The position numbers and the translations under genes were made by a program. Shown here piece by piece: positions 3,421-20,405 of a stretch of DNA of 22,359 nucleotides (position 1 is its first letter; every line of letters starts with the position of its first letter). The notes under the pieces were generated by a model. It saw only the letters and a list, made by a program, of their open reading frames with translations, was not told where the DNA came from and ran no database searches. The stretch lies in NCBI GenBank assembly GCA_026686805.1, contig GCA_026686805.1_3949.2. One strand, given 5' to 3'. Origin of the DNA: a phage.

Positions 3421-3468
3421 CTTATTACTCTCTCTCTCTTGTTAGTTAATAAATCATTTTGTAAGGCT

Positions 3469-3498
3469 ATTCTAAGGGGCTTTGAAGCCCCTTGTCAA
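3469..3498 (-). promoter_or_regulatory. Candidate sigma70-like promoter (TTGACA-N18-TAGAAT) in the rIIA-rIIB intergenic region
   Basis: Minus strand: gtTTGACAaggggcttcaaagccccTTAGAATagcc; -35 at 3498..3493, -10 at 3474..3469, predicted start about 40 nt upstream of the rIIB ATG. The spacer is itself a GC hairpin (separate feature). Confidence 0.35.
3475..3492 (-). other. GC-rich hairpin AGGGGC-UUCAAA-GCCCCU with no U-tract (RNA structural element between rIIA and rIIB)
   Basis: Perfect 6-bp inverted repeat aggggc/gcccct with a 6-nt loop. Not followed by a U-run on either strand, so not called a terminator. Confidence 0.45.
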
Positions 3499-3503
3499 AC
3501 ACT

Positions 3504-6434: not shown

Positions 6435-6462
6435 ATCATATACTTTTAAAGCTGCTTGTCAA
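6435..6462 (-). promoter_or_regulatory. Candidate sigma70-like promoter (TTGACA-N16-TATGAT) overlapping the 3' end of the NAMPT-like gene
   Basis: Minus strand: aatatTGACAagcagctttaaaagtaTATGATaagaggctcc; -35 at 6462..6457, -10 at 6440..6435. The transcript would begin inside the terminator hairpin. Confidence 0.3.
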
Positions 6463-8227
6463 TATTATTTCGAATATCGCCAAGAGTTGTGTAGCCGAAC
6501 TGCTCAGAGTCGCTAAAGACTAAACGTAAAGCACAAGCTGGATGCTCAAGTGCATCTGCAAAACTCTGGAATCCATAGCCATCTACAGCTTTCAGATTCT
6601 CACCATCCCACATAGGGGCTACACCACCAAAAGCAGACTTCTTAACACCACTATCTGTTTTAGGGTCTTTTGCAAGCATAATCTCTTTACCACCAATGCT
6701 TGCAAGAGTTGCTTTGACAGCAAATGCAAAGGTGTCACGAGTCATGTACTGGTAAGTGTAGGAACCTACACCAAACACTACGTTAGAGCTTGCAAAACCC
6801 ATTTCATACAAACGCTTAAGGATTTCGTTTGCACGTTCCAACGTGATAGAGTCACCATAGATAAGGCCAATGTGCTCATCCAGTACCTTAAAACCTTTAG
6901 AGTTGATAGTCCCTCCAAAGATGTTGTACAGTGTCTTAATAGCTCCATCAATCTCAGCTACAGGGCGTGTTACAACGTTTGCAGAACCAACCATATAAGC
7001 GTTCTTCAACATCACTGTATCAGCAACTTCAAAGTCTTCTCTGTCAACAACCATTTCATAGCCTTCTGACAGTAGCCATCCAGCAATACCATAGTTGATG
7101 TTTTCAAGCTTCATGTTCAGAACAGCATTCAACATTGTGTCGCTGGCTTCCAGCTTGCTAAGGTGCTCATAATAAGCCTTTTTAGCACACTCTAAGTGGA
7201 TTGCTTTATAACCTGTGACAATATGTACAGGGTCTCCAGAGTCAGGACGAATTACCAGTTTACCGTCACGTTCCATAATCTCTTTGCGAAGTGCTGGTAA
7301 GATTTCTGACACAGTTCTCCAGAAGTTATAAGTGTCTGAAACAACACTTGCAATACCAGTTGGGTAAGTTTCTGTTAAGAAACGACGGAAGGTTTGTAAC
7401 TCACCTTTAAAGCGTCTTTCTTCTTCAATCAACTCATTACCACCTTCCCAAGCAATGTTTGCACACATTACAGAGTGCTCAGTGGCTGGTACAGAACTAC
7501 CAATATCAGAAATTGGGTAAGACTGTCCATAGATGCGTTTAGCCGTGTATACAGCAGGGAAACTATCAGTTCCTTTAAAGCTGGTTAAGTGACCTACAGC
7601 ATTAAATGCGTCATCGGTAAAGCCGGACATACCACGCATAGCAAAGTCATGGCACTGATAAGGTAAATGTAAGTCATTGTCGCAAGTAAGGTCAGCCCAC
7701 TTCTTACAGATACGTTTGTAGTGCAATGCAATAGTTGCAATGGTACAAGCCTTCCAAATCTCAGCAGAGAAAGCATCTTCCAGATACCCCGCTACCCAAT
7801 GGAAACCTGAAACAGTGTTCTGGAAGACAATTATTGGTACACGCATAGGAACAACTGTGCCTTCTTCTACAGCGTATACTTCAACTGGCAGATAACCTAA
7901 GTCGTGAAGTGCTTCCCAATGCTCTCGACCAATAGCATCTTTACCCAGAACACCGTTCATGACTTCTAATATTTCGTCAATTGCTTCTTTTTTGTCACGT
8001 TCAAAGAAGGTGGCGTTCCAGTGGTCTATCAGGTAATCTTTAACAAAACGTTGAATACCAAAAGCAACTACACCATCAATTGCTAAGGGGCTGTTAAACC
8101 ATTTGTCACTACGTGGTGTCAGGTTGAACATCAAGTACTCTGTTGCGCTAGGATACTGGTAGATGTGACCAGATTTGTAAGCATCTGCGTTTAAACCTGC
8201 TGGTACTGCATAAAGTGATTTAGTCAT
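6446..8227 (-). CDS. Nicotinamide phosphoribosyltransferase-family protein (NAMPT-like; candidate NARP1 Namat), 593 aa
   Basis: ATG start confirmed. N-terminal ...NADAYKSGHIYQYPSATEY...FNLTPR tracks the NAMPT N-terminal signature as I recall it from human NAMPT ([27 protein letters not shown]). Same orientation as, and 45 nt downstream of, the PRPP-synthetase-like gene. Confidence 0.8.
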   Translation of the reverse strand: MTKSLYAVPAGLNADAYKSGHIYQYPSATEYLMFNLTPRSDKWFNSPLAIDGVVAFGIQRFVKDYLIDHWNATFFERDKKEAIDEILEVMNGVLGKDAIGREHWEALHDLGYLPVEVYAVEEGTVVPMRVPIIVFQNTVSGFHWVAGYLEDAFSAEIWKACTIATIALHYKRICKKWADLTCDNDLHLPYQCHDFAMRGMSGFTDDAFNAVGHLTSFKGTDSFPAVYTAKRIYGQSYPISDIGSSVPATEHSVMCANIAWEGGNELIEEERRFKGELQTFRRFLTETYPTGIASVVSDTYNFWRTVSEILPALRKEIMERDGKLVIRPDSGDPVHIVTGYKAIHLECAKKAYYEHLSKLEASDTMLNAVLNMKLENINYGIAGWLLSEGYEMVVDREDFEVADTVMLKNAYMVGSANVVTRPVAEIDGAIKTLYNIFGGTINSKGFKVLDEHIGLIYGDSITLERANEILKRLYEMGFASSNVVFGVGSYTYQYMTRDTFAFAVKATLASIGGKEIMLAKDPKTDSGVKKSAFGGVAPMWDGENLKAVDGYGFQSFADALEHPACALRLVFSDSEQFGYTTLGDIRNNIDKQL

Positions 8228-8247
8228 CTTTTAATCTCTCTCAAAAT

Positions 8248-8263
8248 GGGGCTTTTAAGCCCC
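8248..8263 (-). other. GC-rich hairpin GGGGC-UUAAAA-GCCCC between the PRPS-like and NAMPT-like genes; no clean U-tract
   Basis: Perfect 5-bp inverted repeat ggggc/gcccc with a 6-nt loop. Downstream minus RNA is AUUUUGAGAGAG (the Shine-Dalgarno of the NAMPT-like gene). Same design as the rIIA/rIIB hairpin. Confidence 0.45.
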
Positions 8264-8272
8264 TATAAACTT

Positions 8273-9154
8273 TCAATCAAGGTTTGCTACAGTAACTTGA
8301 CTGTAATGTGTTAAGCCACGGTCTTTAGCTTCGCCTAAAGAGTTTGTAGTGTAAATATGGTCGATACCATTGTCAAGAAGGTTTTCAACATCTTTAGAGA
8401 AGATACCATGTGTTACATAAAGTTCCACACGTTTTGCACCTGCTTCACGAAGATGTTTCGCTGCTTCTATGAAGGTTCGACCACCATCACAGATATCATC
8501 CAGAATCATAACGGTTTTATCTGTCAAATCAACATCATCAAGGATTCGCATACCAGTAATTTCACCAGTCTTAAGGTTACGCACCTTAGACATTGTGATA
8601 TATGGTTTATCCACCTCTTTAGCGGTCTCTGCAACCTTCTTAGCAGCACCTGCATCTGGGGCTACTAAGTAATCAACCAGTGGGTCATTTGCATAGTGGA
8701 CTGCAATCTCCTTTTGAGGAATACTCTGGAAGCAGTTAAACAGGTTATCTGGAACGCAACTGTGAGGGTCAACTGCACAGACTGCACCAAATCCCATTGC
8801 ATTTACCTGTTTAGCAAAAACCTTTAAAGCTGCTGCGTCGCCTTTAAACATGTGACGGTCATATCGTGCATTTGGTAAGTAGTAAAAGATGACAGTCTTT
8901 AAAGCATAATCATGAGGAATTAAATCATCAATTGCTTCTTTAGCAAGTGCCACAGCAAACAAAGTGTCCTTATCATAACCTTTTACAATCATAATCACAT
9001 TGTTGATGGATGATGCTGCATAAGCAGTAAAATCAACAAACTCTGGCGAAAAGTGTCCACCAATCTCACCAGAAGGGAATTGGACGATGTTAAACTCTTC
9101 TTCATGAGTCCCTTTAGTTGGTGAATGAACTGTAACACGGATAGATGTTTTCAT
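8273..9154 (-). CDS. Ribose-phosphate pyrophosphokinase-family protein (PRPP synthetase-like; candidate NARP1 Adps), about 293 aa
   Basis: Track ORF starts at a TTG (9169); ATG at 9154 (MKTSIRVTVH) has a GAGAGAGAAAACT Shine-Dalgarno. PRPS-type motifs present: VDPHS, VAPDAGAAKKV and the PRPP-binding loop ILDDICDGGRT. Confidence 0.8.
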   Translation of the reverse strand: MKTSIRVTVHSPTKGTHEEEFNIVQFPSGEIGGHFSPEFVDFTAYAASSINNVIMIVKGYDKDTLFAVALAKEAIDDLIPHDYALKTVIFYYLPNARYDRHMFKGDAAALKVFAKQVNAMGFGAVCAVDPHSCVPDNLFNCFQSIPQKEIAVHYANDPLVDYLVAPDAGAAKKVAETAKEVDKPYITMSKVRNLKTGEITGMRILDDVDLTDKTVMILDDICDGGRTFIEAAKHLREAGAKRVELYVTHGIFSKDVENLLDNGIDHIYTTNSLGEAKDRGLTHYSQVTVANLD

Positions 9155-9165
9155 AGTTTTCTCTC

Positions 9166-9444
9166 TCAATCAAAAGTTACGTTTGTTACTGCCATTGCAG
9201 ATTTGCATTTTGCAGGGTCTACAACGTGATAAAGTACACTACAGTTACCTGTGCTGTCTGGTACAGGCTTTACCCATTGCTGCTTTATAGTTGGCTCTCC
9301 TAAGTCTTTGTAAGAGCCATCTGTAAAGTTGTTTACCATCTCAAGTGCAATTGGTTCTGGAACATGACCACGTATCATGTACATCTCACAACCATTACCA
9401 CCTTCACTGACTAATGGTAAAATTTCCCACTTTTCTTTAGCCAT
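9166..9444 (-). CDS. Hypothetical protein (92 aa)
   Basis: ATG start confirmed. ATGGCTAA-type 8-nt overlap with the upstream gene; ends 11 nt before the PRPS-like ATG. No recognisable motif. Confidence 0.5.
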   Translation of the reverse strand: MAKEKWEILPLVSEGGNGCEMYMIRGHVPEPIALEMVNNFTDGSYKDLGEPTIKQQWVKPVPDSTGNCSVLYHVVDPAKCKSAMAVTNVTFD

Positions 9445-9952
9445 TATAAGTTGCCCTATAAACTGTCTCGAACTTCAACAGGAGAGATATTGCCAAAGCT
9501 GTATAGTTGTTGTCAAGCACGTCTGGCATATTATTTTTGATATATTTCTCTTGCTCTTCATAGGTCATCTTAGGAATACTTAGGAGGCTATCTCCTTGCT
9601 TCTGGTTATCAGCTTTAGTTTGGATAAACCAGTTCGCACAGTGATGTTCACCACCTTTTGTAACAGGTTTGTGGTGGCCTAGTGTAAATGTTTGCTTACC
9701 CGTATACCTGCAAAGATTGTTCAGTGTTGCAATGGTGTTCTTCACAACACACCATTCATACAGGTTATCTATTGTGTAGTGTGGGTAATAACGGACAAGC
9801 GCTCTTTCACGGAAGTTATCACGATTCCAAAGAACCATGTGATTAGAATTTGAAGGGTCATATTTGTGGGAGTCTATAAATTCTTGACGCTCATCAAAGC
9901 TGAGTCTTAGAACTGACATTGCAACCGAACGTTTCAGGTTTGACAGATACAT
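9437..9952 (-). CDS. Hypothetical protein (171 aa), possible HNH-like nuclease motif
   Basis: ATG start confirmed. GHHKPVTKGGEHHCANW resembles the HH...GG...N core of HNH nucleases, but the final His is not evident. First gene after the 9962..9990 terminator. Confidence 0.5.
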   Translation of the reverse strand: MYLSNLKRSVAMSVLRLSFDERQEFIDSHKYDPSNSNHMVLWNRDNFRERALVRYYPHYTIDNLYEWCVVKNTIATLNNLCRYTGKQTFTLGHHKPVTKGGEHHCANWFIQTKADNQKQGDSLLSIPKMTYEEQEKYIKNNMPDVLDNNYTALAISLLLKFETVYRATYNG

Positions 9953-10003: not shown

Positions 10004-10324
10004 TTACTGAGCTACTTTCAAGAGGCTTGTGAATGGAATCTCACTCTCATCCATAAGCTCTTTTGCTTTTCCAGTAACTTTTACAAAGTTATCTAGGCAG
10101 ATAATCTTCTTATCTTTCTTGCTGTAGGTCAGTTTCACCTTTTCAATATCTTTCTTAGAGCTTTCCTCTTCATTAAAGAGCTTCACAGCTTCTTTGAATG
10201 GAAGGTATGAGCCATCATCATCACTAATAAAACCTGTGCCGCAATAGTAGAAGTTATATTCTTTAGCCATAAACTGGCACAGTACGAAAATCTGTAATTT
10301 GCGAGTGTTATAAACTTTGCTCAT
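10004..10324 (-). CDS. Hypothetical protein (106 aa)
   Basis: ATG start confirmed. 2-nt gap to the upstream gene. No recognisable motif. Confidence 0.5.
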   Translation of the reverse strand: MSKVYNTRKLQIFVLCQFMAKEYNFYYCGTGFISDDDGSYLPFKEAVKLFNEEESSKKDIEKVKLTYSKKDKKIICLDNFVKVTGKAKELMDESEIPFTSLLKVAQ

Positions 10325-10326
10325 GA

Positions 10327-10593
10327 TTATTTAGCCTTCTTATTGCGTTTACGGTTACGAGCTTTCTTGGCTGCTCGTTTAATAGCTGCTGCACCAGACG
10401 GACGGTGGGCTTGTTTCTTACCACCTTTGCCACGGCCTACATAGATGTAAGGTTGCTGTTCAATTTGGCTTGTAAGAACTTGTGCAACTGCTGAAGCATC
10501 TACACCAACCTGCTTTCCAGTCATAGAAATGATTGCTGCTGCTTTTGCCAGTGCCTTCAAGAAGCCAGCTTTCATATTACCTAAAATTCCCAT
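10327..10593 (-). CDS. Small basic protein (88 aa from second ATG) with Lys/Arg-rich C-terminal tail
   Basis: Track start ATG at 10608 lacks a Shine-Dalgarno; ATG at 10593 (MGILGNMKAG...) has GAGAGG 5 nt upstream. C-terminus GRGKGGKKQAHRPSGAAAIKRAAKKARNRKRNKKAK is strongly basic. Confidence 0.5.
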   Translation of the reverse strand: MGILGNMKAGFLKALAKAAAIISMTGKQVGVDASAVAQVLTSQIEQQPYIYVGRGKGGKKQAHRPSGAAAIKRAAKKARNRKRNKKAK

Positions 10594-10621
10594 TTTAGCC
10601 TCTCTCATTAAAGTTTAATAC

Positions 10622-10638
10622 AGAACTTATGAAGTTCT
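10622..10638. other. Perfect 7-bp inverted repeat agaactt-atg-aagttct in the nrdG-downstream intergenic region
   Basis: Read directly from the sequence. Only a weak U-rich run follows on the minus transcript, so function (attenuator, processing site or binding site) is unknown. Confidence 0.4.
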
Positions 10639-10688
10639 TCTTCAGTGATACCAATTGGAGTTATACCTTAGTCCATTTGCCAGAATAA

Positions 10689-11174
10689 TCACTCTGCTCT
10701 CCACTGACAATCACCTTGCCATCCGTACTCTTTTCTCCAGAGGTTTTGGTTATCTGAACCACGATACGGTTTAACTGTTGGTTTAGATGAATCATACTTA
10801 CCATCAATCACCACGTCAACATATTTCATCACATCTAAGTGGATTTTTTCGTGCAGTTGAAAACCTGTCCAAAGCCATATAGACTTTTCTGGATAAACAG
10901 TTTTAATACGCTTACATATGTTGGTAACCTCTTGAATATTTCTATCATCCAGAGGCTCTCCACCGAGTATTGACAACCCACTGATGGCATCATCATCCAT
11001 TAACTTAATGATACCGTAGAGGTTTGCATAAGTAAACTCTTTACCAGCATTAAACTTCCAAGACTCCCTGTTAAAGCAGCCTTCGCAGTGATGCTTACAA
11101 CCAGCTACGAAGAGGCTTACACGAACCCCTTCACCATTAGCTGTGTCAAATGGCCTAATCTCCATGTAATTCAT
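10689..11174 (-). CDS. nrdG: Anaerobic ribonucleotide reductase activating protein (radical-SAM activase), 161 aa
   Basis: ATG start confirmed, with GAGGT Shine-Dalgarno. CKHHCEGC is a CX3CX2C radical-SAM cluster motif near the N-terminus. Size and position near nrdD fit NrdG. Confidence 0.8.
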   Translation of the reverse strand: MNYMEIRPFDTANGEGVRVSLFVAGCKHHCEGCFNRESWKFNAGKEFTYANLYGIIKLMDDDAISGLSILGGEPLDDRNIQEVTNICKRIKTVYPEKSIWLWTGFQLHEKIHLDVMKYVDVVIDGKYDSSKPTVKPYRGSDNQNLWRKEYGWQGDCQWRAE

Positions 11175-11232
11175 CTAGTTACCTCACCAATAAATATAAA
11201 CGTTCTTTAACCTTTTCTTCGAATTGTTTTAC

Positions 11233-11628
11233 TCATTCAAACACCACCTGACAAGGAACCTGTTTAGTAATAAATTCTTCACAGTGCTCTTTAATGAAGT
11301 TTTGTAATGGTACACAATCTTGTGCGCAAGTCATTAGCATAATGTACTCTGGATTCATGATGTTTTCAAGACTGTAGAAGACAACATTATCAGATAGTTC
11401 GTGACCATCTTCTTCAGACCAAGTTCCAGTGACTACAGCTAATTTGTCAAGCAATTCATTAGGCAATGCTACACCATCTTCTACAGAATCACTTAGAACA
11501 TTGTCGCCAATATACAATGTGAAGACCGTGTGGAATGTTGAGTATCTTACGTGATTCTTTTCACAAGAGCCACACTCTGAGGCATAATCTTTAATCCACT
11601 CTAACTGTTTTTGGCTTAACTTAATCAT
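11233..11628 (-). CDS. Hypothetical protein (131 aa)
   Basis: ATG start confirmed. ATGA start/stop overlap with the upstream 66-aa gene. Several Cys residues but no recognised motif. Confidence 0.5.
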   Translation of the reverse strand: MIKLSQKQLEWIKDYASECGSCEKNHVRYSTFHTVFTLYIGDNVLSDSVEDGVALPNELLDKLAVVTGTWSEEDGHELSDNVVFYSLENIMNPEYIMLMTCAQDCVPLQNFIKEHCEEFITKQVPCQVVFE

Positions 11629-11825
11629 AATTTCACCTTAGTTGGTAATGTACTGAATGCTATAGCTAATCCTAAAAATGGTTTGAAGCATGGCCATAAA
11701 TCCATCTGACCATGATATGAGAAACTCCATTGTGGGTCTGAAAAACCCCATACCATAACGCTAACACCAAAGAAGAAGATTAGAATGTGGAGTATGTATA
11801 TCAACGCTTTTGATATCTTAAACAT
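11625..11825 (-). CDS. Small hydrophobic membrane protein (66 aa)
   Basis: ATG start confirmed. Two hydrophobic stretches (ALIYILHILIFFFGVSVMVWGF and FLGLAIAFSTL). Translationally coupled to the downstream gene. Confidence 0.5.
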   Translation of the reverse strand: MFKISKALIYILHILIFFFGVSVMVWGFSDPQWSFSYHGQMDLWPCFKPFLGLAIAFSTLPTKVKL

Positions 11826-11965
11826 TTTAACTTATCTCTCAATTCACAATAAGAGAGTCCTAAAAAGAACCCTAGTAAGACAGAACCTATGAACAACCCA
11901 ATAATACTATCTGTCATATCTAACATCCAATAAAAAAGGTGATGTAAGCCTATCAAGACCCACAT
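11801..11965 (-). CDS. Possible small hydrophobic ORF (54 aa); not in track
   Basis: Hand-translated: MWVLIGLHHLFYWMLDMTDSIIGLFIGSVLLGFFLGLSYCELRDKLKCLRYQKR. AAGGTG abuts the ATG with no spacer, so the true start is uncertain (TTG at codon 4 or a later ATG possible). Overlaps the next gene by 25 nt. Confidence 0.25.
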   Translation of the reverse strand: MWVLIGLHHLFYWMLDMTDSIIGLFIGSVLLGFFLGLSYCELRDKLKCLRYQKR

Positions 11966-11979
11966 CACCTTGTCAAGTT

Positions 11980-14124
11980 TTACATAGAGACTCTATCACG
12001 AATCTCAGCGATTTTTGCATCGTTCATTCGGGATTCACCTTTAATCTTAGTCCATCCAAGATACCCACACACCCTGTTAATCACAGAGATATCATGTGAA
12101 TGGCAAACCTCGCATTCTTCAACATCAGCCTTTGGTCTGTTACCACAATGTTCACAGATTGCTAAGTCAAAGTTAAGCCCCTGATAGAAACCTTTCAACA
12201 TCCCTCTTGTGATACAACTTTTAAGTGCTGTTAAGTTTTCTGGGTTAGCTACCCTGACATACTGGATTCTCCCACCTCTACAGATATGGAAGAATGGCTC
12301 TTCTAAGTCCTGCTTCTCAAATGGTGAGATGTCTGCTGCAACATTCATATGGAAACTGTTTGTAAAGTATTCCTTATCAGAAACACCTTTGATAACGCCA
12401 AACATATCTCTGAACTGTTTTAGCTGAGTTCCGCAAAGTGATTCTGCTGGAGTACCATAGACGGCATATAAGAAGCCATCTTCATTTTTAAACTCTTCAG
12501 TTTTCATGTTGATGTATGCCAGAACATCGTATGCAAAACTACAGCTTCCAACTTCATGAAGTCGTTTACCTTCAGCAAGAACAGATAGCTCATCAAGCGC
12601 AGTAACCCCAAAAGAAGCTGTGAAGGACTTCACAATATCCCAACCAACCTTGTCAGTAGGTTTCTTAGTTCCTTTGTACAGACCACCTTGTGTGAATGCA
12701 AGAGGGTTAGAACTTGCTGGCATATTAGCAATCATTTCGTAGCGTTTCTTGTGGAAGCTGCGAATCATCTCTAGGTACTTATCAAGCTCTTTCCAGAAAT
12801 CTAAACCACTCTCTCTAGAATACTGGTAAATCATCGGTAAGTTCAAAGATACAGCACCAATGTTAGCACGACCAACATAGAACTCTTCCCCATCCTCATT
12901 AAGATATGGAGATAAGAAGGCTCTGCAACCCATCGGTGAAATTACCTTGCCAGAACGCTCAAAAGCCTCTGCTACAGCACCATGACCAGATACACTTAAG
13001 AAGTCTGGATACATTGCTTTAGAGCAACACTCAATAGCTTTACTGTACAGGTGACCTTGACAGATATTTTCATCATGTCTCTTCTGGTCATAAATATAAA
13101 CCAGTTTAGGAAATACAACAGGCTTCTTGCTCTTACCTTGTCCATTCATACGAACATCTAGGAGAGTACTTGCAATCATGTATTGTAATCGGTTGTCTTC
13201 ATTAGACATGTCTGAGTCAAGTAACCCAAATGTTAAAGTTGTGAATGCAAAATCCCCACGACTACAAGGTACAGTGTTTAGTTTCATTTCAAGTGACTGG
13301 AAACCTTGAGTTAATTCAATCTGTAACTGCTCCATGACATAATTATGGTAATGTTCTTTAGGAATACCATAAGATGTTGCTTTCTCAGCATGATAGCGTA
13401 GAGACTTCTTAGCATACGGTACAAGTACCTTGTCAATCTCTGCTAAAGTAAAGCCACCAAATTGCTGTGCAGTTGCTGAAAGAACTACGTCACCAATAAC
13501 TTGTAAGGCCGACAGCACAGACTTCGGTTCACAATATTCGATGCCAGACATTTCAAAGCCACCTTTCAGTACTTTACCAATGTCAAACAGACAACAGTTA
13601 ATACCACCAAAAATTAGGTCTCTTAAGTCATGGATGTAGATAAACCCTTTTTCAATGGCTTCAAGTTCCTCTGGTGTTAAATGGTACTGTTTAAAGATTT
13701 CTTTAGTCAGATAACCACGAATAATTGAACCTTTTGTAGAAATTAAACTGCTGTCAAAGTTAGCATTCTCTCTGTCACCTAAGAAGAGTGTATCTTTGGT
13801 CTTCTGGTAAAGTTCATCCCAATTTTGAGCAACTTCTTTACGGTAATTTCTATATGTTGAGTAAGACTCATAAATCTCGTGATTGACTTCTGCCAAAGCA
13901 CCCTCAACAATACTGTGAATATCATTTACTGAAATGAGCAAATTATTCTGTTTAGTAGATTTTACCAGAATCCTCATAAATGCTGACTCAAGAGCTTGGG
14001 TAACATCTGGTGGGAGTTCTTTATAACCAACCCTATTAGCTGACTTTGTGACTGCTGCTAAAACTTTTTTGATATCAGGTTCTTCGAGTGAGCCATTCTT
14101 TTTAATAATCTGTACTTTGTTCAT
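11980..14124 (-). CDS. nrdD: Anaerobic ribonucleoside-triphosphate reductase, class III (714 aa)
   Basis: ATG start confirmed. C-terminal glycyl-radical motif RVCGYLG, preceded by a Cys cluster (CEHCGN ... CEVCHSH). Reading frame is contiguous, so no intron is evident. Confidence 0.9.
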   Translation of the reverse strand: MNKVQIIKKNGSLEEPDIKKVLAAVTKSANRVGYKELPPDVTQALESAFMRILVKSTKQNNLLISVNDIHSIVEGALAEVNHEIYESYSTYRNYRKEVAQNWDELYQKTKDTLFLGDRENANFDSSLISTKGSIIRGYLTKEIFKQYHLTPEELEAIEKGFIYIHDLRDLIFGGINCCLFDIGKVLKGGFEMSGIEYCEPKSVLSALQVIGDVVLSATAQQFGGFTLAEIDKVLVPYAKKSLRYHAEKATSYGIPKEHYHNYVMEQLQIELTQGFQSLEMKLNTVPCSRGDFAFTTLTFGLLDSDMSNEDNRLQYMIASTLLDVRMNGQGKSKKPVVFPKLVYIYDQKRHDENICQGHLYSKAIECCSKAMYPDFLSVSGHGAVAEAFERSGKVISPMGCRAFLSPYLNEDGEEFYVGRANIGAVSLNLPMIYQYSRESGLDFWKELDKYLEMIRSFHKKRYEMIANMPASSNPLAFTQGGLYKGTKKPTDKVGWDIVKSFTASFGVTALDELSVLAEGKRLHEVGSCSFAYDVLAYINMKTEEFKNEDGFLYAVYGTPAESLCGTQLKQFRDMFGVIKGVSDKEYFTNSFHMNVAADISPFEKQDLEEPFFHICRGGRIQYVRVANPENLTALKSCITRGMLKGFYQGLNFDLAICEHCGNRPKADVEECEVCHSHDISVINRVCGYLGWTKIKGESRMNDAKIAEIRDRVSM

Positions 14125-14142
14125 TATTGCCCCTTTACATGC

Positions 14143-14164
14143 TAAAAAGGTCTCCGAAGAGACC
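14143..14164 (-). terminator. Intrinsic terminator hairpin with UUCG tetraloop (minus RNA GGUCUC-UUCG-GAGACC followed by UUUUUAGC)
   Basis: Plus 14149-14164 is ggtctc-cgaa-gagacc, preceded on plus by an A-run. Lies between the 68-aa gene and the nrdD start. Confidence 0.55.
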
Positions 14165-14172
14165 CTTTCATT

Positions 14173-14379
14173 TTAAATCTTTTTAGAAAACTTCGCAAAG
14201 AGTTCTCTTAGTTTTTCAGTGATACCTAACTGTATCTCTAATATTTCGAAGATAACCCATAGTAACATGGCTCCAAACAATGAACCTTGTTCAAAGTCAG
14301 TAAATAGGTTAACAATCAGCATACCAATCACAATCGCTGGTGCATCAACAACCAAACCTTCCCAAATGCGTTTAAGCAT
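14173..14379 (-). CDS. Small hydrophobic membrane protein (68 aa)
   Basis: ATG start confirmed. Hydrophobic stretches VVDAPAIVIGMLIVNLF and FGAMLLWVIFEIL. 8-nt overlap with the redoxin gene upstream. Confidence 0.5.
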   Translation of the reverse strand: MLKRIWEGLVVDAPAIVIGMLIVNLFTDFEQGSLFGAMLLWVIFEILEIQLGITEKLRELFAKFSKKI

Positions 14380-14614
14380 TATTCACCTCTGCCATAAAAT
14401 TCTGTAGCGTCCCAACAGGTTTTAGGTTTTGTCCATCAGTTTTCATGATGAATGGCATCTGACGAACTGGCATCTGTGCAATATCCATCAGGTCTGATAG
14501 TTCATAATCCTGCCCTAACATTCTCACAACATGGTCAATACCACGAGCTTTTGCAAAATTCTTTGCAGTCTCACACTGAGGGCATCCAGTTTTGGAGTAA
14601 ATTACATAAGTCAT
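14372..14614 (-). CDS. Glutaredoxin-like small redoxin (NrdH/NrdC-type), 80 aa
   Basis: ATG start confirmed. Active-site CPQC near the N-terminus (YSKTGCPQCETAK). Size and position directly after nrdB (TAATG overlap) fit an RNR electron donor. Confidence 0.7.
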   Translation of the reverse strand: MTYVIYSKTGCPQCETAKNFAKARGIDHVVRMLGQDYELSDLMDIAQMPVRQMPFIMKTDGQNLKPVGTLQNFMAEVNNA

Positions 14615-15687
14615 TAAGGAACCTCTAAAAATCCACTATTCAAATCATCTACAACAGTATTCAACAGGTACGCACCGTTCTGTTGCTCCTGATTAGCATT
14701 CTGCTCTTTATCAATTTCCATCTTCTTAATCATGTACTTCAAAGGTGGTTCTTTAGGAGCTACAAAATCTCTGGGAATGCCAAACATATCATACAGTGGG
14801 GCAGCATTATAGTAAACCCACTCATGAAGAAGCTTTGTATTTAAGCCAACTACAGCACGTCCTTCGGAGAAGATATAATACGACCATTTCTCTTCACTTT
14901 CAACTACTTCATCTAAGATTACTTTAATCTCTGGAAGAATTTGTTGAAAAGCTTTCTGCCACTCATCATCTCTTAAAGTTTCTTTTAAAACTTCAATATC
15001 AATTTTAGTGTGAAGGATTTCATCAAGCATAATTTTCTGGACAGCTTGAGCAATACCCTGAAATTTATCTTGAGCATCAAGTGCAAAAGTACATGCAAAG
15101 GATGCCATAAAAGATATACCTTCAAGTGCAGTCACTGCAAATAGACCTTTTAGAATCACTTTATGGAAGTGTAAAGGGTCTTTGTCCAGAAGTGAATCAC
15201 GGACATAACTCAGCCGATAGTTTATACCTTCATCCAGTAATTCTTCAAGAACACGATTCACAGTTTTTAATCGGTCTTGCACAGCAACATTCTGGTTAAT
15301 CTCATCTAAGATTGTTTCAGGGTTTTTAATACATTGTCTTACAATCTCTGAGTAAGTAAGAGCATGTAGGTTTTCAATCTCAGACTGCTTCATAATTGCA
15401 GTTGCATAGATGTCATCAGAGATAAAGGGTGCAAAGGCAAATGCCAAGCTCTTAGCAACTTGAGTGTCTGCTTCCCATTGCCACTTAAGAATCTCAAGCA
15501 TTACACCTGACATTGATGCTGGGACACTCTCAAAATCAAGACGTGATTGTTCAAAAGGGAACTCATCTTCTGACCAATCTTGTGCTTTTTGTTGTTTATA
15601 AAGCTCAAAGATTTTTGGGTAGTGCTTATTAAGTGAGTCAAAAGTTTTTCTCTCACCACCTAAAAAGATTGGGTGCTGGTTAATCAT
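14614..15687 (-). CDS. nrdB: Ribonucleotide reductase class Ia small (beta) subunit, 357 aa from ATG
   Basis: Track ORF begins at a TTG (15747); ATG at 15687 (MINQHPIFLGG...) forms an ATGA overlap with the upstream small gene and has AAGGAG upstream. Di-iron ligand and tyrosyl-radical motifs present: EIENLHALTY (E-x-x-H...Y) and ALEGISFMASFA...DEILH. Confidence 0.85.
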   Translation of the reverse strand: MINQHPIFLGGERKTFDSLNKHYPKIFELYKQQKAQDWSEDEFPFEQSRLDFESVPASMSGVMLEILKWQWEADTQVAKSLAFAFAPFISDDIYATAIMKQSEIENLHALTYSEIVRQCIKNPETILDEINQNVAVQDRLKTVNRVLEELLDEGINYRLSYVRDSLLDKDPLHFHKVILKGLFAVTALEGISFMASFACTFALDAQDKFQGIAQAVQKIMLDEILHTKIDIEVLKETLRDDEWQKAFQQILPEIKVILDEVVESEEKWSYYIFSEGRAVVGLNTKLLHEWVYYNAAPLYDMFGIPRDFVAPKEPPLKYMIKKMEIDKEQNANQEQQNGAYLLNTVVDDLNSGFLEVP

Positions 15688-15941
15688 AGCGTGATTTCTC
15701 CTTTCTTTATCATTTCTAAGGCTTGTTTTCTGTCTAAAACTTCCCAATTTTCTTTGTTAAACATCTCATAAGGTCTTGCATAGATTTTACCATCTGCTGT
15801 AGAGATGTAAGAAGCTCCAGTGACCCATAAGTCATTATTCTGCTTTATCATGATACCTGTGCTGCTCACATAGTACAATGCTTTGCGGGGTTTGTAGAGC
15901 AAGTATATTGGTCGCTCATGTTTTTCTATTAAATCTTTCAT
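15684..15941 (-). CDS. Hypothetical protein between nrdA and nrdB (85 aa from internal ATG)
   Basis: Track ORF (15684..16025) would overlap the nrdA 3' end by 29 nt and span a perfect hairpin. ATG at 15941 (MKDLIEKHERP...) has GGAGAG 3-4 nt upstream and lies after the hairpin. Confidence 0.5.
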   Translation of the reverse strand: MKDLIEKHERPIYLLYKPRKALYYVSSTGIMIKQNNDLWVTGASYISTADGKIYARPYEMFNKENWEVLDRKQALEMIKKGEITL

Positions 15942-15963
15942 GGTCTCTCCAAAGTTATTTTTA

Positions 15964-15983
15964 GAGGGTCTTTTACGACCCTC
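15964..15983 (-). other. Perfect 7-bp hairpin gagggtc-ttttac-gaccctc just downstream of the nrdA stop
   Basis: Read directly from the sequence. No strong U-tract follows on the minus RNA, so this is a structural or processing element rather than a terminator. Confidence 0.45.
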
Positions 15984-15996
15984 ATAGTTGTTAAAA

Positions 15997-18231
15997 CTAA
16001 ACACCACATCCCTCGCAATAAGCATCTTGCAGTGCAGATTTACCTACACCAATGCGACTGTTAAGGTAGTACATGGTTTTCATACCTACAGAGTTGGCAT
16101 AAATCATGTACTTCAAAGCTTGAGCCAATGATACCTTCTTAGACTTTGCATAGTCAACATAGAAGTCTGAAGAGATAGCTTGACCAGTGAACTTTTGAAC
16201 AATTGCATAACAATCAATCAGGTCAAAGGTGTCAATACCCCAAGCAATTTCATATACATACTTCAACTCTTCATAATCTGGAACAATAAACAGTACGTTA
16301 CCAGTTGCAGACTTTTTAGTTAAAATAAAGTCACGAATTGGGTACAAGCCATTTGTCGTATTAGTTGCTAGTGAAGAACTCTCATTAGGCATGTAAGCTT
16401 CTAATACAGAGTTTCGGATTCCACCATTTTCTTTGATACGCTGTGCTAAGTCATCCCAATCATATCGTAGTTTTGCATCATGCTTTTCATCAATCTTCTT
16501 GTTAGCTGTCTTTGGAGGAACCCAGCCTTCAGGATACTTAGTGAACTTCATGTACTCTGGAACGCCACGCTCTTTAGCAAGTCTCAGAGAGGCTTCATGT
16601 AGATAGTAAGAGTGCATCTCTGCAAGTTCATGAAGCTTCGTTTTACCTGCTCGTGAAGAGTAGTTCACGTAGTTCTTCGCAAGGTAATGAGCCACATTTG
16701 TAAGGCCAATCCCAACAGAACGACGCTTCTGAACATGGTTACGCATCGACGGATACGGATAATCCATAAGGTCAATAACGGAGTCAACCATTGCAAGAGC
16801 ATAATAAGCAACGTCAGCGTATTCATCTTCTGAAATTCTCCCTGCAACCAAACTAGCTAGGAAGCAAAGAGCCACCTCACCATCCTCTTTCACAGCATCG
16901 TCTCTGTAAAGGTCTGTCTCTTTCTCAAAACCATATACTGGCAACACAATTTCCATACAAAGATTTGACATCTTCAATGGTTCTTTAAATGGTGTATGTG
17001 TGTTTGCATTGTTAGTGAAGAATGGGTACACACGACCTGTAGCATAACGCTGTTGAATAAACAGCTTAGCAATTTCACGAGCCTTTACCCGTCTATGCTT
17101 AACACCTGAATGTACTGCATGACCAACTGCCATAGCAAACTCATCAGCAGATGCTGTGTAGAACATGTCATAGAGTTTTGGTGCATCTTTGTAAGAGAAT
17201 AGCAACCAATCTGTATCATACTGAACACACTGCCAGAAATAATCGTTTGTACCGAATGAGTAGTCCATCTCATTAATGCGTTTAGAAGGAACCGTTGTAG
17301 GGTGCTTCAAACGCAATAAATCTTCAATCTGCGGGTCTAGAGCAGTGTAGAAGTTATTAGCTGAACCACCACGACTCTTCTGTTTGTTTGCCTCTACAGA
17401 TGAACGTACAAGCTTGTAATAAGGTAGCTTACCCATGTGCTCAATCGTATTTTGACGGATACCATCACCAATAGTGCGAGTCTCCATCAGCATACCAATA
17501 CCAGCTTGCTTTGTAGTCATATCATAAGCAACCTTTGCAGCAATACCAAGTGATTCAGCAGTATCATTTGCCTTAATCAAACAGCATGACGCATAGCCTG
17601 ATTTAGTTGCTCTTAAACCGTTTAAATAAGGCGTAGGAGCGTTAATCTTCAGGTCAGATAGGTAAGTGTACAGCTTGATAACATCTTGCAGTCTACGGTG
17701 CTTTGGTTGCTTCTCAAAGGCTTTCATAGCCATACCCATAAACATAAATTGTGGTGACTCAAAAAGTCTTCCAGTTTTAATATCACGGATACCATACTTG
17801 TCTCTGAACTGTTTCAATACTGCATAGCCGTAAGAGATATCTTTTGAGTGTACGATGTAACCTTGCAGATATTCAAGCTCTTCCTGTGAATAATCCATCT
17901 TCTCCCAAAGTCCTGCTCTCTCCATATTTTTAACGAAGGTAATCAGCGTAGGAACCTTAGTAAAGCCTCCAAAGGCTTCTTTGTAGATAATCCCCAAAAG
18001 TAGCCGTCCAGCCATATCTGAGTACTCTTGAGTTTGTTTATCAACACAAACATCAATCATGGCTTGGTGCATCTCTTTTGTAGTGCAACCCTCGTAGACA
18101 CGCTTCATGGCTTCCATAGTGACTTCTGACCAGATAATTCCACGCTTGTCTGCCCATGATGCCCACTTATTCAGTCTTTCTGGGTCAAAGCTTACTACTG
18201 TACCGTTTGATTTTTTAATTGTCTTAATCAT
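15997..18231 (-). CDS. nrdA: Ribonucleotide reductase class Ia large (alpha) subunit, 744 aa
   Basis: ATG start confirmed. Catalytic-site motif SNLCMEI and C-terminal redox Cys pair (CEGCGV). Size and adjacency to nrdB fit NrdA. Contiguous frame, no intron or intein evident. Confidence 0.9.
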   Translation of the reverse strand: MIKTIKKSNGTVVSFDPERLNKWASWADKRGIIWSEVTMEAMKRVYEGCTTKEMHQAMIDVCVDKQTQEYSDMAGRLLLGIIYKEAFGGFTKVPTLITFVKNMERAGLWEKMDYSQEELEYLQGYIVHSKDISYGYAVLKQFRDKYGIRDIKTGRLFESPQFMFMGMAMKAFEKQPKHRRLQDVIKLYTYLSDLKINAPTPYLNGLRATKSGYASCCLIKANDTAESLGIAAKVAYDMTTKQAGIGMLMETRTIGDGIRQNTIEHMGKLPYYKLVRSSVEANKQKSRGGSANNFYTALDPQIEDLLRLKHPTTVPSKRINEMDYSFGTNDYFWQCVQYDTDWLLFSYKDAPKLYDMFYTASADEFAMAVGHAVHSGVKHRRVKAREIAKLFIQQRYATGRVYPFFTNNANTHTPFKEPLKMSNLCMEIVLPVYGFEKETDLYRDDAVKEDGEVALCFLASLVAGRISEDEYADVAYYALAMVDSVIDLMDYPYPSMRNHVQKRRSVGIGLTNVAHYLAKNYVNYSSRAGKTKLHELAEMHSYYLHEASLRLAKERGVPEYMKFTKYPEGWVPPKTANKKIDEKHDAKLRYDWDDLAQRIKENGGIRNSVLEAYMPNESSSLATNTTNGLYPIRDFILTKKSATGNVLFIVPDYEELKYVYEIAWGIDTFDLIDCYAIVQKFTGQAISSDFYVDYAKSKKVSLAQALKYMIYANSVGMKTMYYLNSRIGVGKSALQDAYCEGCGV

Positions 18232-18246
18232 TTTTAAATCCTACAG

Positions 18247-18271
18247 ATGAAAAGAGCCTCCGAAGAGGCTC
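18247..18271 (-). terminator. Intrinsic terminator hairpin with UUCG tetraloop (minus RNA GAGCCUC-UUCG-GAGGCUC followed by UUUUCAUCU)
   Basis: Plus 18254-18271 is gagcctc-cgaa-gaggctc, preceded on plus by an A-run. Lies between the 110-aa gene and the nrdA start. Confidence 0.6.
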
Positions 18272-18277
18272 CGTAGT

Positions 18278-18610
18278 TTAAATCTTGAAAATTTGCTCAT
18301 TCTGCCACATATCGTAAAACTTATCACTTACCTTTGTGACTGAAGATGTGTGCATACAATTGACGAACCATGATATATTATTGCTCATAATAATTTCAAG
18401 CTGTTTTGTGACATCAACATTCATGTCTTCAACAACATAATTACCTCGTATCTTGCAAACAACTCTTCCAAACAAGATTGCACTTCTCCCTCTTCGGTCA
18501 TCACAGTACATAACTGTGTCTCCGTGCTTAACGTCTTGTCCGATGCTGTCAACACCTAGCTTAACACCTGAGATAATGTCATCATAAGATAGCTTTTTTG
18601 CTTTAGACAC
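18278..18610 (-). CDS. Hypothetical protein (110 aa), apparent GTG start
   Basis: First codon at 18610..18608 is GTG, with GGAG 8 nt upstream; no in-frame ATG nearby. No recognisable motif. Confidence 0.45.
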   Translation of the reverse strand: MSKAKKLSYDDIISGVKLGVDSIGQDVKHGDTVMYCDDRRGRSAILFGRVVCKIRGNYVVEDMNVDVTKQLEIIMSNNISWFVNCMHTSSVTKVSDKFYDMWQNEQIFKI

Positions 18611-18926
18611 GGTATTTCTCCAAGTTTCTTTTTAGATACAACCAACCATAGTCAGTCCTTTCTACACCCATAAAGAGTGGAGCCATCACAACTTTACCGA
18701 AAGTATTCCTGTGTTGGCAGATTTCAAAGGAATACTCTTTCTCAATATCAATCCCGTATTTGTACAGGACTGCTTTTAAAACTTGTTCATTGTCCAGAAG
18801 TGTATCTGGAGTCTCACCATATTTTTCTAGTAACGGGTCATTCATAAACACCGTCATAGAAATATTGTAGTTTGAGAAGTGGCTCTTCTGAGCCACACCC
18901 TCTTTATTAATGTTCTGTGAATCCAT
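18603..18926 (-). CDS. Hypothetical protein (about 107 aa from ATG)
   Basis: Track start at 18935 is a TTG; ATG at 18926 (MDSQNINKEG...). Weak Shine-Dalgarno, so the start is uncertain. Confidence 0.45.
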   Translation of the reverse strand: MDSQNINKEGVAQKSHFSNYNISMTVFMNDPLLEKYGETPDTLLDNEQVLKAVLYKYGIDIEKEYSFEICQHRNTFGKVVMAPLFMGVERTDYGWLYLKRNLEKYRV

Positions 18927-19662
18927 TATAACCAACCCCTTTTAACCAGCACTTCAGGTTATTAGCATCATAATTCAGTTTCGGGTATGAGGTTACATGG
19001 AACTGCTCACCATCATAGTAGACAATATCTGCAATCCATAGTCCATTCTCTTTACAGAAATCTTTATCTGCTTTAGAGGTAATTGGATTAACTTCTACAA
19101 AACCATCTACACCCAAATCCTTTAAGCTACCTACAATACCTTTGCAGATAACGCATGTGTCAGATACTACCACAAAAAGTTCTTGGCTTTCAAGCTCTAC
19201 AATGTATTCACCAAGCTGCACTTTAGGGAGATTAGACTGTTTCATAATCTTCCCATCAGCTTCACGAACAATCGCATACCACTCTTTACCATCAACTACT
19301 GACATTCTAATAATACACTCTTGACCAGTGCGCTTTTCAATGTCTGCAAGACGTTTTAAAGCTTCTTCATAGTTATCTGTGTACTTCAGGTCATTATTAT
19401 GGCAAACAGCTTCCATAGCACCATTATGGTCATGTTGTGACAGATAAATCAAACCGTCAAGAACATATTGCAAATCTGCCTGAGCATCCAGTGTCTCAAT
19501 GGGGTCTTTCTCTTCAATTGCTTTTACAAGCTCTTTTGCTTCTTCAAGCATACATAGAGATTGAGATTTCAAAGATTCCCAATACTCATCACTGTAAGGT
19601 TGCTTTTGAGTTTTTCCACAACGAAGATTCCAGTTTTTTACTGATTCTCTTGAGTTAAACAT
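18907..19662 (-). CDS. MazG-like nucleotide pyrophosphohydrolase domain protein with C-terminal CxxC (thioredoxin-fold-like) extension, 251 aa
   Basis: ATG start confirmed, with AAGGAG 5 nt upstream. N-terminal half has MazG/HisE-like acidic helix motifs (LEEAKELVKAIEE ... DAQADLQYVLDGLIYL). C-terminal half has FVVVSDTCVICKGIVGSL, a redoxin-like CxxC after a beta-strand. Confidence 0.45.
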   Translation of the reverse strand: MFNSRESVKNWNLRCGKTQKQPYSDEYWESLKSQSLCMLEEAKELVKAIEEKDPIETLDAQADLQYVLDGLIYLSQHDHNGAMEAVCHNNDLKYTDNYEEALKRLADIEKRTGQECIIRMSVVDGKEWYAIVREADGKIMKQSNLPKVQLGEYIVELESQELFVVVSDTCVICKGIVGSLKDLGVDGFVEVNPITSKADKDFCKENGLWIADIVYYDGEQFHVTSYPKLNYDANNLKCWLKGVGYNGFTEH

Positions 19663-19907: not shown

Positions 19908-20405
19908 TTAAGCACAATTTGCTTTCATTACCTTATGGATTCTTTTTTCAGCATCTTCATAAGTTTCTTTAGTAATAAACTTAATTGCTGCAATATTGGC
20001 ATTGTAGAAGAGTCTGAGCTTCGAGTCAATCCTTTTTGTCATTACATCGAATTTATGTTGAAGGTTTGCTTCACCATAGACTAGGCCACCTTTTGTGTAG
20101 TAGGTTTGAATAATGTAAAAGTCAAAAAATTCTTTTCCAAAGCTCTCAATATCTTTTTTAATATACTCAGAAGAAGTCTCGTAAGTCATCCAATCACTTT
20201 CCTTAGTGACTACCTTCTTCCGAGTCTTACCAGCAACTTTTCTTTTGGTCACACTGTTAAGCTGTTTCTTTCCGATATAATATTGTCCAGTCTTCTTACA
20301 GTGTACTAAATAGACAAAGCCAAAATGTTTAGTGGGGTCAACTTCCCCACATAAAGATACCCAATGACCATAGGTGGGGCAATTGCCAAATCCTTTAATC
20401 TTCAT
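19908..20405 (-). CDS. GIY-YIG-like nuclease domain protein (165 aa)
   Basis: ATG start confirmed. FGFVYLVHCKKTGQYYIGKK matches the GIY-(x10-11)-YIG architecture; downstream basic stretch and conserved Glu/Asn candidates. Too short for a typical Seg-type homing endonuclease with DNA-binding domain. Confidence 0.45.
   Translation of the reverse strand: MKIKGFGNCPTYGHWVSLCGEVDPTKHFGFVYLVHCKKTGQYYIGKKQLNSVTKRKVAGKTRKKVVTKESDWMTYETSSEYIKKDIESFGKEFFDFYIIQTYYTKGGLVYGEANLQHKFDVMTKRIDSKLRLFYNANIAAIKFITKETYEDAEKRIHKVMKANCA

Follow-up and report, generated by a model that had tools for sequence, protein, structure and literature searches.

The stretch examined here, hereafter the window, is the whole 22,359-nucleotide length of the phage contig GCA_026686805.1_3949.2 (assembly GCA_026686805.1), and its minus strand encodes a ribonucleotide reductase (RNR) block between positions 10689 and 18231. 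These 7,543 bp contain nrdA, nrdB, a gene for a small redoxin, nrdD and nrdG, interleaved with five small open reading frames (ORFs), and the gaps between genes are at most 58 nt. An earlier reading of the letters, the original prediction, had placed the same five genes on the minus strand within ∼7.5 kb, and Pfam and NCBIfam matches far beyond chance bear this out. In nucleotide comparison, the interval 10500-18400 shows 97.5% identity to Escherichia phage HY02 and matches 264 phage records, 246 of which span at least 80% of it; nearly all are Felixounavirus or other Ounavirinae, with Escherichia, Salmonella, Shigella and Citrobacter as hosts. Across its full 22.4 kb, the window shares ∼96% identity with several Felixounavirus genomes and is identical to none. 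This level of identity and the synteny with HY02 and Felix O1 place the window in Felixounavirus (Ounavirinae), and the block is almost certainly the standard deoxynucleotide-supply module of these Felix O1-like myoviruses of E. coli and Salmonella.

The gene nrdA (15997..18231) encodes the 744-residue alpha subunit of a class Ia RNR, with matches to PF02867 (1.9e-90) and PF00317 and a score of 578 bits against NCBIfam TIGR02506 (cutoff 341). The protein comprises an ATP-cone, an all-alpha domain and a barrel domain; the ATP-cone match is weak (7.3e-4, 20.5 bits, under the 25.8 cutoff), and the alignment with the E. coli protein starts at residue 6. Global alignment shows NrdA to be colinear with E. 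coli K-12 NrdA at 35% identity, with a largest gap of 8 residues. The SNLCMEI motif quoted in the original prediction occupies residues 422-428 (window 16948-16968), and a CEGC pair is present at the C-terminus. Every E. coli residue inspected is conserved: C225, N437, C439, E441, C462, Y730, Y731, C754 and C759 correspond to C216, N423, C425, E427, C456, Y721, Y722, C739 and C742. The protein thus combines the features expected of a class Ia alpha subunit, namely the thiyl cysteine, the redox pair, the N437/E441 equivalents, the ATP-cone, the radical-transfer tyrosines and the shuttle cysteine pair.

Its partner gene, nrdB (14614..15687), encodes a 357-residue beta subunit matching PF00268 (Ribonuc_red_sm, 2.3e-34), and translation likely begins at the ATG at 15687 rather than at a TTG at 15747. 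NrdB is colinear with E. coli NrdB at 25% identity, and this alignment upholds the predicted di-iron and tyrosyl-radical motifs: the segment ENLHALTY (residues 105-112) carries di-iron ligands and the tyrosyl-radical residue, and E. coli W48, D84, E115, H118, Y122, E204, E238, H241 and Y356 are conserved as W38, D74, E105, H108, Y112, E189, E223, H226 and Y340. The di-iron ligands, the radical tyrosine and the W48/Y356 radical-transfer residues of a class Ia beta subunit are therefore all present. Both proteins are also colinear with solved structures. NrdA and NrdB together would make up an oxygen-dependent reductase of class Ia, acting on ribonucleoside diphosphates by means of a di-iron tyrosyl radical.

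The anaerobic enzyme is encoded by nrdD (11980..14124, 714 residues), a class III RNR recognized through PF13597 (NRDD, 1.9e-113), ATP-cone and Gly_radical matches and through TIGR02487 (483 bits, cutoff 326). The Gly_radical match lies just above its cutoff (22.6 bits against 22.2), and the glycyl-radical motif RVCGYLG, as predicted, occupies residues 684-690 and aligns with RRTC(G580A)YLG of T4. The protein further contains NCCL (residues 176-179, with C177), the thiyl-loop segment PMGCR (residues 397-401, with Cys400) and four zinc-site cysteines (residues 657-674). Its alignments to 1H78, the sequence of the T4 NrdD crystal structure, and to 9d3x are colinear throughout, and equivalents of T4 C79, C290, N311 (the N of RANIG), the four zinc-site cysteines (CEHC...CEVC) and G580 are all found. 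With a glycyl-radical motif, a thiyl cysteine in the finger loop and zinc-site cysteines, NrdD carries the hallmarks of class III and would act as a glycyl-radical ribonucleoside-triphosphate reductase under anoxic conditions. By its likeness to the T4 and E. coli enzymes, its reductant is probably formate.

At the downstream end of the block, nrdG (10689..11174, 161 residues) encodes the radical S-adenosylmethionine (SAM) activase of NrdD, which matches PF13353 (Fer4_12, 2.6e-43) and PF04055 and scores 197.8 bits against TIGR02491 (cutoff 126.1). The predicted CX3CX2C motif is found at residues 26-33 as CKHHCEGC, in keeping with an activase, and NrdG is thus the radical-SAM enzyme expected to install the glycyl radical of NrdD.

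Between nrdB and nrdD lies the redoxin gene (14372..14614), which encodes an 80-residue protein with the predicted CPQC active site at residues 11-14. A thioredoxin fold with an N-terminal CxxC is indicated by PF00462 (30.5 bits, cutoff 22.9), with phrog_22 as a further match (5e-14). The start of the gene overlaps the nrdB stop by 1 nt. Matches in the PDB are weak (Grx1, NrdH and Grx2, all E ≥ 0.019), and comparison with T4 NrdH and NrdC detects no similarity beyond the active site.

All five genes are full-length, and the checked catalytic and radical-transfer residues are in place, so the complete class Ia plus class III complement with its redoxin stands as originally described. Alignments to E. 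coli, T4 and Felix O1 proteins reveal no intron, intein, frameshift, truncation or homing-endonuclease gene in the block. An intein would appear as an in-frame insertion of at least ∼130 residues with splicing motifs, and none is found: NrdA, NrdB and NrdD are colinear with their references, the largest insertion being 8 residues. Nor is there a sign of a group I intron or homing endonuclease, with no gap above 8 residues against the references and with lengths equal to those of Felix O1. At the gathering threshold, Rfam returns no match in the window or in three relatives. The contiguity of the reading frames had been claimed from the sequence at the outset; colinearity with E. coli NrdA and NrdB and with T4 NrdD, and gap-free alignment to Felix O1, confirm it.

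Relatives carry mobile elements at precise positions in and around the same genes. Breakpoints were mapped in window coordinates against four relatives. JohannRWettstein (MZ501086), Andreotti and phiWec177 contain a 742-nt insertion at 12925/12926, and the breakpoints of the first two place the empty site (12925..12926, minus strand) inside the Cys400 codon of nrdD (GGT/TGC). U is the last base of the 5' exon and G that of the insert, removal of the insert restores ATG GGT TGT AGA (M-G-C-R), and MZ501086 is annotated with a joined coding sequence. Against RF00028 the insert scores 38.9 bits (E 3e-8), under the gathering score of 50, and is seen only in permissive E-value mode, probably because an ORF interrupts the intron. 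This ORF encodes a 154-residue HNH_3 endonuclease (2.6e-10). The full element occurs in 61 phage records; in the relative sequence L002 it lies at 3329-4072. In intron-bearing alleles, exon 2 shows mostly synonymous changes clustered beside the site, as expected for co-conversion or target immunity. The nrdD intron of T4, which encodes the GIY-YIG endonuclease I-TevII, lies ∼120 codons upstream of the Felixounavirus site, and because of this distance the two introns are taken to be independent insertions. The catalytic cysteine codon of nrdD is thus the target of the relatives' group I intron, and the window shows that codon uninterrupted.

Several further observations bear on this element. 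Some Felix O1-like phages have been described with a ‘split’ nrdD (PMC4837284, PMC4392139), and several genome papers call the element a split gene or a free-standing homing endonuclease rather than an intron. Records named ‘Campylobacter phage’ (e.g., A126, MG065668.1) contain 90%-identical Felixounavirus genes together with the nrdD intron, and appear to be Felixounavirus sequences that were submitted with Campylobacter given as the host. Parts of the intron are matched as well by records of Tequatrovirus, Vibrio and Proteus phages.

Other junctions of the block are occupied in relatives as well. Directly after the nrdD stop (∼11981-11986, minus strand), radambza and 48 other records (49 in total) hold a free-standing gene for a 185-residue NUMOD3 endonuclease (5.8e-5) within a 569-bp insert, paralleling the position of mobC between nrdD and nrdG in T4. 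HY02, JohannRWettstein and MET-P1-301 contain a 300-bp ORF at ∼11196-11199 with a weak DUF5499 match, and several relatives have a 157-bp insertion at 10669/10670 that creates a small ORF overlapping the 3' end of nrdG. Outside the block, HY02 and Felix O1 share an HNH gene at window position 20396/20419, which the window lacks. As reported previously, Felix O1-like phages differ from one another chiefly by endonuclease indels (PMC3728262).

The five interleaved ORFs had been summarized as small unknown and membrane genes. Hydrophobicity was judged with a 19-residue window and a Kyte-Doolittle score above 2, and three of the ORFs exceed it, in agreement with that description. The first, orf68 (14173..14379), encodes what is predicted to be a small membrane protein, with hydrophobicity peaking in two segments (maxima 2.14 and 1.82; phrog_4532, 3.9e-42), and overlaps the redoxin gene by 8 nt. 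Its Felix O1 counterpart is annotated as a hypothetical membrane protein; a relationship to T4 55.8 was considered and rejected, no similarity being found. The second, orf41 (11801..11926), encodes a predicted single-pass membrane peptide (maximum 2.16; phrog_20082, 2.5e-39) whose 41-residue form is the one annotated in JohannRWettstein and UAB_Phi87. A 55-residue version with a GTG start at 11968 would begin inside a terminator-like hairpin at 11936-11971, and for this reason the shorter form is favored. The third, orf66 (11625..11825), encodes a predicted membrane protein (maximum 2.55; phrog_11929, 4.6e-46). A membrane-protein label is given to orf66 and orf41 in PHROGs and to orf68 and orf41 in the Felix O1 annotation.

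The remaining two ORFs encode soluble proteins. orf131 (11233..11628; phrog_4382, 1.1e-63) carries invariant cysteines at C101, C105 and C116, and has no Pfam or NCBIfam match even at E ≤ 10. Its tblastn matches fall almost entirely within Ounavirinae records. Its structure model is poor, with a predicted local distance difference test (pLDDT) score of 61.9 and of 34-40 for the other four models, and a fold search against the PDB returns only noise (template modeling score ≤ 0.3). Nothing in NCBIfam matches orf131, orf68 or the ORF between nrdA and nrdB in its 113-residue form (orf113), a permissive Pfam search (E ≤ 10) of the small ORFs yields no informative match, and the homologue search yielded shallow alignments for the two soluble proteins (6 close clusters for orf113, 9 for orf131).

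The ORF between nrdA and nrdB requires a corrected start. In the mechanical ORF list it reaches as far as 16025 (15684-16025, 113 residues), the length at which Felixounavirus records usually annotate it. However, phrog_2652 covers only residues 29-113 of this form, and a short form of 85 or 91 residues is annotated in Felix O1 (ORF113), EF202P1, EcSzw-2 and MET-P1-301. Judged from these sequences, the true protein is orf85 (15684..15941), 85 residues long with its ATG at 15941, and the 113-residue version is over-extended; the length originally listed is revised accordingly. The invariant first 28 codons of the long form could be taken for a conserved peptide, a reading that is rejected because Suspvirus has a different hairpin there and because several annotations start at the downstream ATG; the segment corresponds to a non-coding hairpin and the GGAG ribosome-binding site. 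orf85 and nrdB overlap by 4 nt, stop on start, and are translationally coupled. Its AlphaFold model (pLDDT 87.7) resembles, in BFVD, small beta-barrels of the DUF1653 type from many phages (E 5e-8 to 1e-3, with DUF1653 proteins at 5e-8 to 5e-5), and has neither a significant match in the PDB nor a nuclease fold. Similarity to Tudor/SH3-like barrels such as the CarD N-terminal domain is non-significant (E ≥ 0.14), and no such relationship is claimed. The gene lies between nrdA and nrdB in three Ounavirinae genera; in the Erwinia Kolesnikvirus its homologue lies ∼2 kb beyond nrdB instead. An RNR link was sought outside Ounavirinae and not found, and orf85 is given no RNR-linked role since its distant homologues in Vibrio phages adjoin DNA polymerase genes, not RNR genes.

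Four stable hairpins punctuate the block on the minus strand. Upstream of nrdA, the hairpin GGAGCCUC-UUCG-GAGGCUCU, followed by UUUC (18253..18272; -16.1 kcal/mol, z = -3.1), marks the 5' boundary. Between the nrdA stop and the ribosome-binding site of orf85 lies the stem-loop GAGGGUC-GUAAAA-GACCCUC (15964..15983; -16.4 kcal/mol, z = -3.2), which has the same nucleotides in Felixounavirus as in Mooglevirus. In Suspvirus EcSzw-2 its place is taken by a GC-rich hairpin of different sequence, and from this a conserved structural role is suggested, for example in attenuation, in RNA processing or in the stability of the RNA. Between orf68 and the nrdD ribosome-binding site, the terminator-like hairpin GGUCUC-UUCG-GAGACC precedes UUUUU (14149..14164; -15.9 kcal/mol, z = -3.1), and none of 200 shuffled sequences folds as stably. 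The strongest of the four begins 8 nt past the nrdD stop and resembles an intrinsic terminator, with a 16-bp stem followed by UUUUUU (11936..11971; -23.5 kcal/mol, z = -6.1). Between the hairpins, two series of ORFs overlap from one gene to the next: orf85-nrdB-grx-orf68 (by 4, 1 and 8 nt; grx denotes the redoxin gene) and orf41-orf66-orf131. This arrangement suggests several putative transcription units, nrdA / orf85-nrdB-grx-orf68 / nrdD / orf41-orf66-orf131 / nrdG, in which nrdD would be insulated on both sides.

No result speaks against the identification of the block, although three of its details are less secure. The best NCBIfam match of NrdB, NF006576 (class Ia beta), reaches 3.1e-38 and 131.6 bits, under the equivalog cutoff of 346; for this reason NrdB is considered a divergent class Ia beta member, whose predicted class derives from residue conservation and from the class Ia-like NrdA with which it is paired. 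For the redoxin, no NCBIfam subfamily cutoff is reached (NrdH 23.3 against 85.75, Grx3 20.2 against 90, YruB also sub-threshold), so that no specific subfamily applies, and both its type (Grx, NrdH-like or other) and its partner are putative. Because all subfamily models score far below their cutoffs, the putative name ‘glutaredoxin-like’ is used in preference to either Grx or NrdH. Finally, promoter-like matches are not enriched (31, against 24.7 +/- 5.1 expected from shuffles), and since they do not rise above the shuffles, it is the hairpins that the transcription-unit model is built on.

This last point gives some room to an alternative in which all 7.5 kb make up one operon with a single polycistronic messenger RNA, and the hairpins do no more than stabilize RNA. 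The shared strand and short gaps are compatible with it, no convincing sigma-70-like promoter stands out inside the block, and the hairpins before and after nrdA lack a strong U-run. The two hairpins flanking nrdD, however, resemble intrinsic terminators, with UUUUU before the gene and a 16-bp stem followed by UUUUUU after it, and the promoter scan used leaves out phage middle and late promoters. A single operon is therefore fairly unlikely. Of the phrase ‘one same-strand block’ in the original prediction, the strand holds; it should not be read as one operon, given the strong hairpins around nrdD. A further alternative concerns the partner of the redoxin. Some class III RNRs use thioredoxin-type reductants, the redoxin gene sits between nrdB and nrdD, and in T4 the glutaredoxin gene nrdH adjoins nrdG, so the redoxin could be imagined to serve a thioredoxin-dependent class III enzyme rather than NrdAB. 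This is improbable: a terminator-like hairpin separates the redoxin gene from nrdD, its start overlaps the nrdB stop, and NrdD is closest to T4-type and E. coli-type class III enzymes, which are formate-dependent. Because the redoxin is translationally coupled to nrdB and is kept beside nrdA and nrdB in the Erwinia Kolesnikvirus, which has neither nrdD nor nrdG, it most likely serves the class Ia enzyme, where it would re-reduce the C-terminal cysteine pair of NrdA. The same partner was suggested by Whichard et al. in 2010 (PMC3185647).

The interleaved ORFs invite two further alternatives. One would make all five (orf85, orf68, orf41, orf66 and orf131) decayed remnants of homing endonucleases, in line with the endonuclease genes that relatives hold at several junctions of the block and with T4 mobC between nrdD and nrdG. 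The original prediction had asked for the ORFs to be checked for such homology: searches of Pfam (even at E ≤ 10), PHROGs and NCBIfam give no endonuclease-family match for any of them, and fold comparison gives none for orf85, whose model is a DUF1653-like beta-barrel. Three of the five are hydrophobic membrane peptides, and all five are conserved in place throughout Felixounavirus, where endonuclease genes occur only sporadically. The relatives' endonuclease insertions lie elsewhere (12925/12926 and ∼11981-11986, and outside the block 20396/20419), and the further insertions at 11196-11199 and 10669/10670 contain no endonuclease domain when scanned. A remnant origin is thus very improbable. 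The other alternative would make orf85 a dedicated class Ia accessory factor, acting in cofactor assembly or maintenance, as YfaE does, or as a replication tether, with the membrane peptides anchoring enzymes of deoxynucleoside triphosphate (dNTP) synthesis. The evidence leans against it, with the Vibrio phage homologues beside DNA polymerase genes and the Kolesnikvirus homologue displaced from nrdAB, and such a role is considered unlikely. Least credible is an incomplete complement, in which some nrd gene is truncated, frameshifted or interrupted. Some relatives are annotated with a split nrdD or a fragmented nrdB, and nothing in the window itself points that way: all ORFs are full-length, colinear with their references and exactly as long as their Felix O1 counterparts, so the chance of a defective gene is negligible. 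The MET-P1-301 record (4761-5647) shows nrdB as two overlapping fragments and a shortened nrdD, which is probably a frameshift or assembly error rather than biology.

The same module has already been described in Felix O1, whose ‘nrdABDG cluster’ was reported with an 80-residue glutaredoxin and without insertions or introns in the nrd genes (Whichard et al. 2010, PMC3185647). In Felix O1 (NC_005282, ORF112-ORF121), the gene order, strand, lengths and small interleaved ORFs are the same as in the window. The eight proteins compared are equal in length, align without gaps and are 91.3-100% identical (NrdA 99.6%, NrdB 100%, NrdD 98.2%, NrdG 91.3%). Together with the T4 NrdD alignment, this answers the check originally proposed: no Nrd protein compared contains an insertion or is truncated or interrupted. 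Felix O1 differs by small indels outside the nrd genes, by an extra ORF122 that overlaps the 3' end of nrdG, like the 157-bp insertion at 10669/10670, and by the HNH genes ORF106 and ORF128, both of which the window lacks. JohannRWettstein, Andreotti, UAB_Phi87, Mushroom and radambza contain the same cluster at 94-97% nucleotide identity. Unlike the window, which has neither element, these five alleles carry the nrdD intron with HNH_3, the NUMOD3 gene after nrdD, or both. The cluster is therefore ordinary for its genus, in an arrangement already known from Felix O1.

More distant systems share the functions and diverge in arrangement. T4 has the same functional complement (class Ia and class III RNR, activase and small redoxins), and its NrdD is colinear with that of the window at ∼31% identity. 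A small membrane ORF and a glutaredoxin gene lie near nrdG in T4 too; T4 NrdH and NrdC are not detectably related to the redoxin of the window, and 55.8 is unrelated to orf68. Its nrdD contains a group I intron with I-TevII, and mobC follows, whereas the window has neither. On the T4 genome map, nrdA and nrdB lie in a region separate from nrdD, nrdG, nrdH and nrdC. E. coli encodes the same enzyme classes in nrdAB-yfaE and nrdDG, and its catalytic, radical-transfer and metal-ligand residues are conserved in the window, whereas overall identity is just 35% for NrdA and 25% for NrdB. The YfaE-like ferredoxin of E. coli is absent, and the phage redoxin and the DUF1653-like ORF stand in its place. 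In Erwinia phage vEam_PM_27 (Kolesnikvirus), nrdA, nrdB and a glutaredoxin gene are followed farther on by PRPP (phosphoribosyl pyrophosphate) synthetase and nicotinamide phosphoribosyltransferase (NAMPT) genes, and nrdD and nrdG are missing. Since this relative infects a plant pathogen, the anaerobic module appears to be confined to enteric-host genera of Ounavirinae.

Around the block lie genes for NAMPT, PRPP synthetase, a MazG-like protein and an exonuclease, as well as rIIA and rIIB, named from the annotations of matching genomes. The NAMPT, PRPP synthetase-like and MazG-like genes (6446-9169 and 18907-19662, minus strand) are recognized through PF04095 (6.8e-35), PF00156 and PF14572, and PRA-PH (6.3e-6), respectively. 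With the RNR block between them, they form one large region of nucleotide and nicotinamide adenine dinucleotide (NAD) metabolism, as in Felix O1, whose flanking-gene layout matches that of the window. A scan of the whole window finds no transfer RNA.

GIY-YIG-like and HNH-like ORFs had been predicted near the block. The former is well supported: the ORF at 19908-20405 (minus strand) encodes a SegE-type GIY-YIG domain protein (PF19835 SegE_GIY-YIG, 9.4e-28; phrog_7363, 1.2e-15). Felix O1 and HY02 label its homologue ‘NAD synthetase’, probably a propagated misannotation. Support for the latter is slight: the ORF at 9437-9952 shows a visible HHxPxxxGG...N...N pattern and a weak phrog_2214 match (2.6e-6), with no Pfam match. 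Between this ORF and the block, a gene at 10004-10324 (minus strand) encodes a DUF7390 protein (1.2e-16). In radambza and Andreotti, the homologues bear the name ‘putative HNH homing endonuclease’, for which Pfam gives no support, and HY02 lacks window positions 10094-10303, that is, most of this gene.

As a discovery, the block carries little weight, with a description of Felix O1 available from 2010 and hundreds of near-identical public genomes. Its practical value is that of a clean reference allele, which preserves the uninterrupted state at three or four sites where relatives hold mobile elements. It also supports a few corrections to annotation within the genus: the ORF that separates nrdA from nrdB should begin farther downstream, and the SegE-type GIY-YIG protein should lose its ‘NAD synthetase’ label. 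The enzymatic activity of the reductases is predicted here from sequence conservation; by combining a class Ia and a class III system in one compact module, these phages would be able to maintain dNTP synthesis in both the oxic and the anoxic states that their hosts may experience in the gut.

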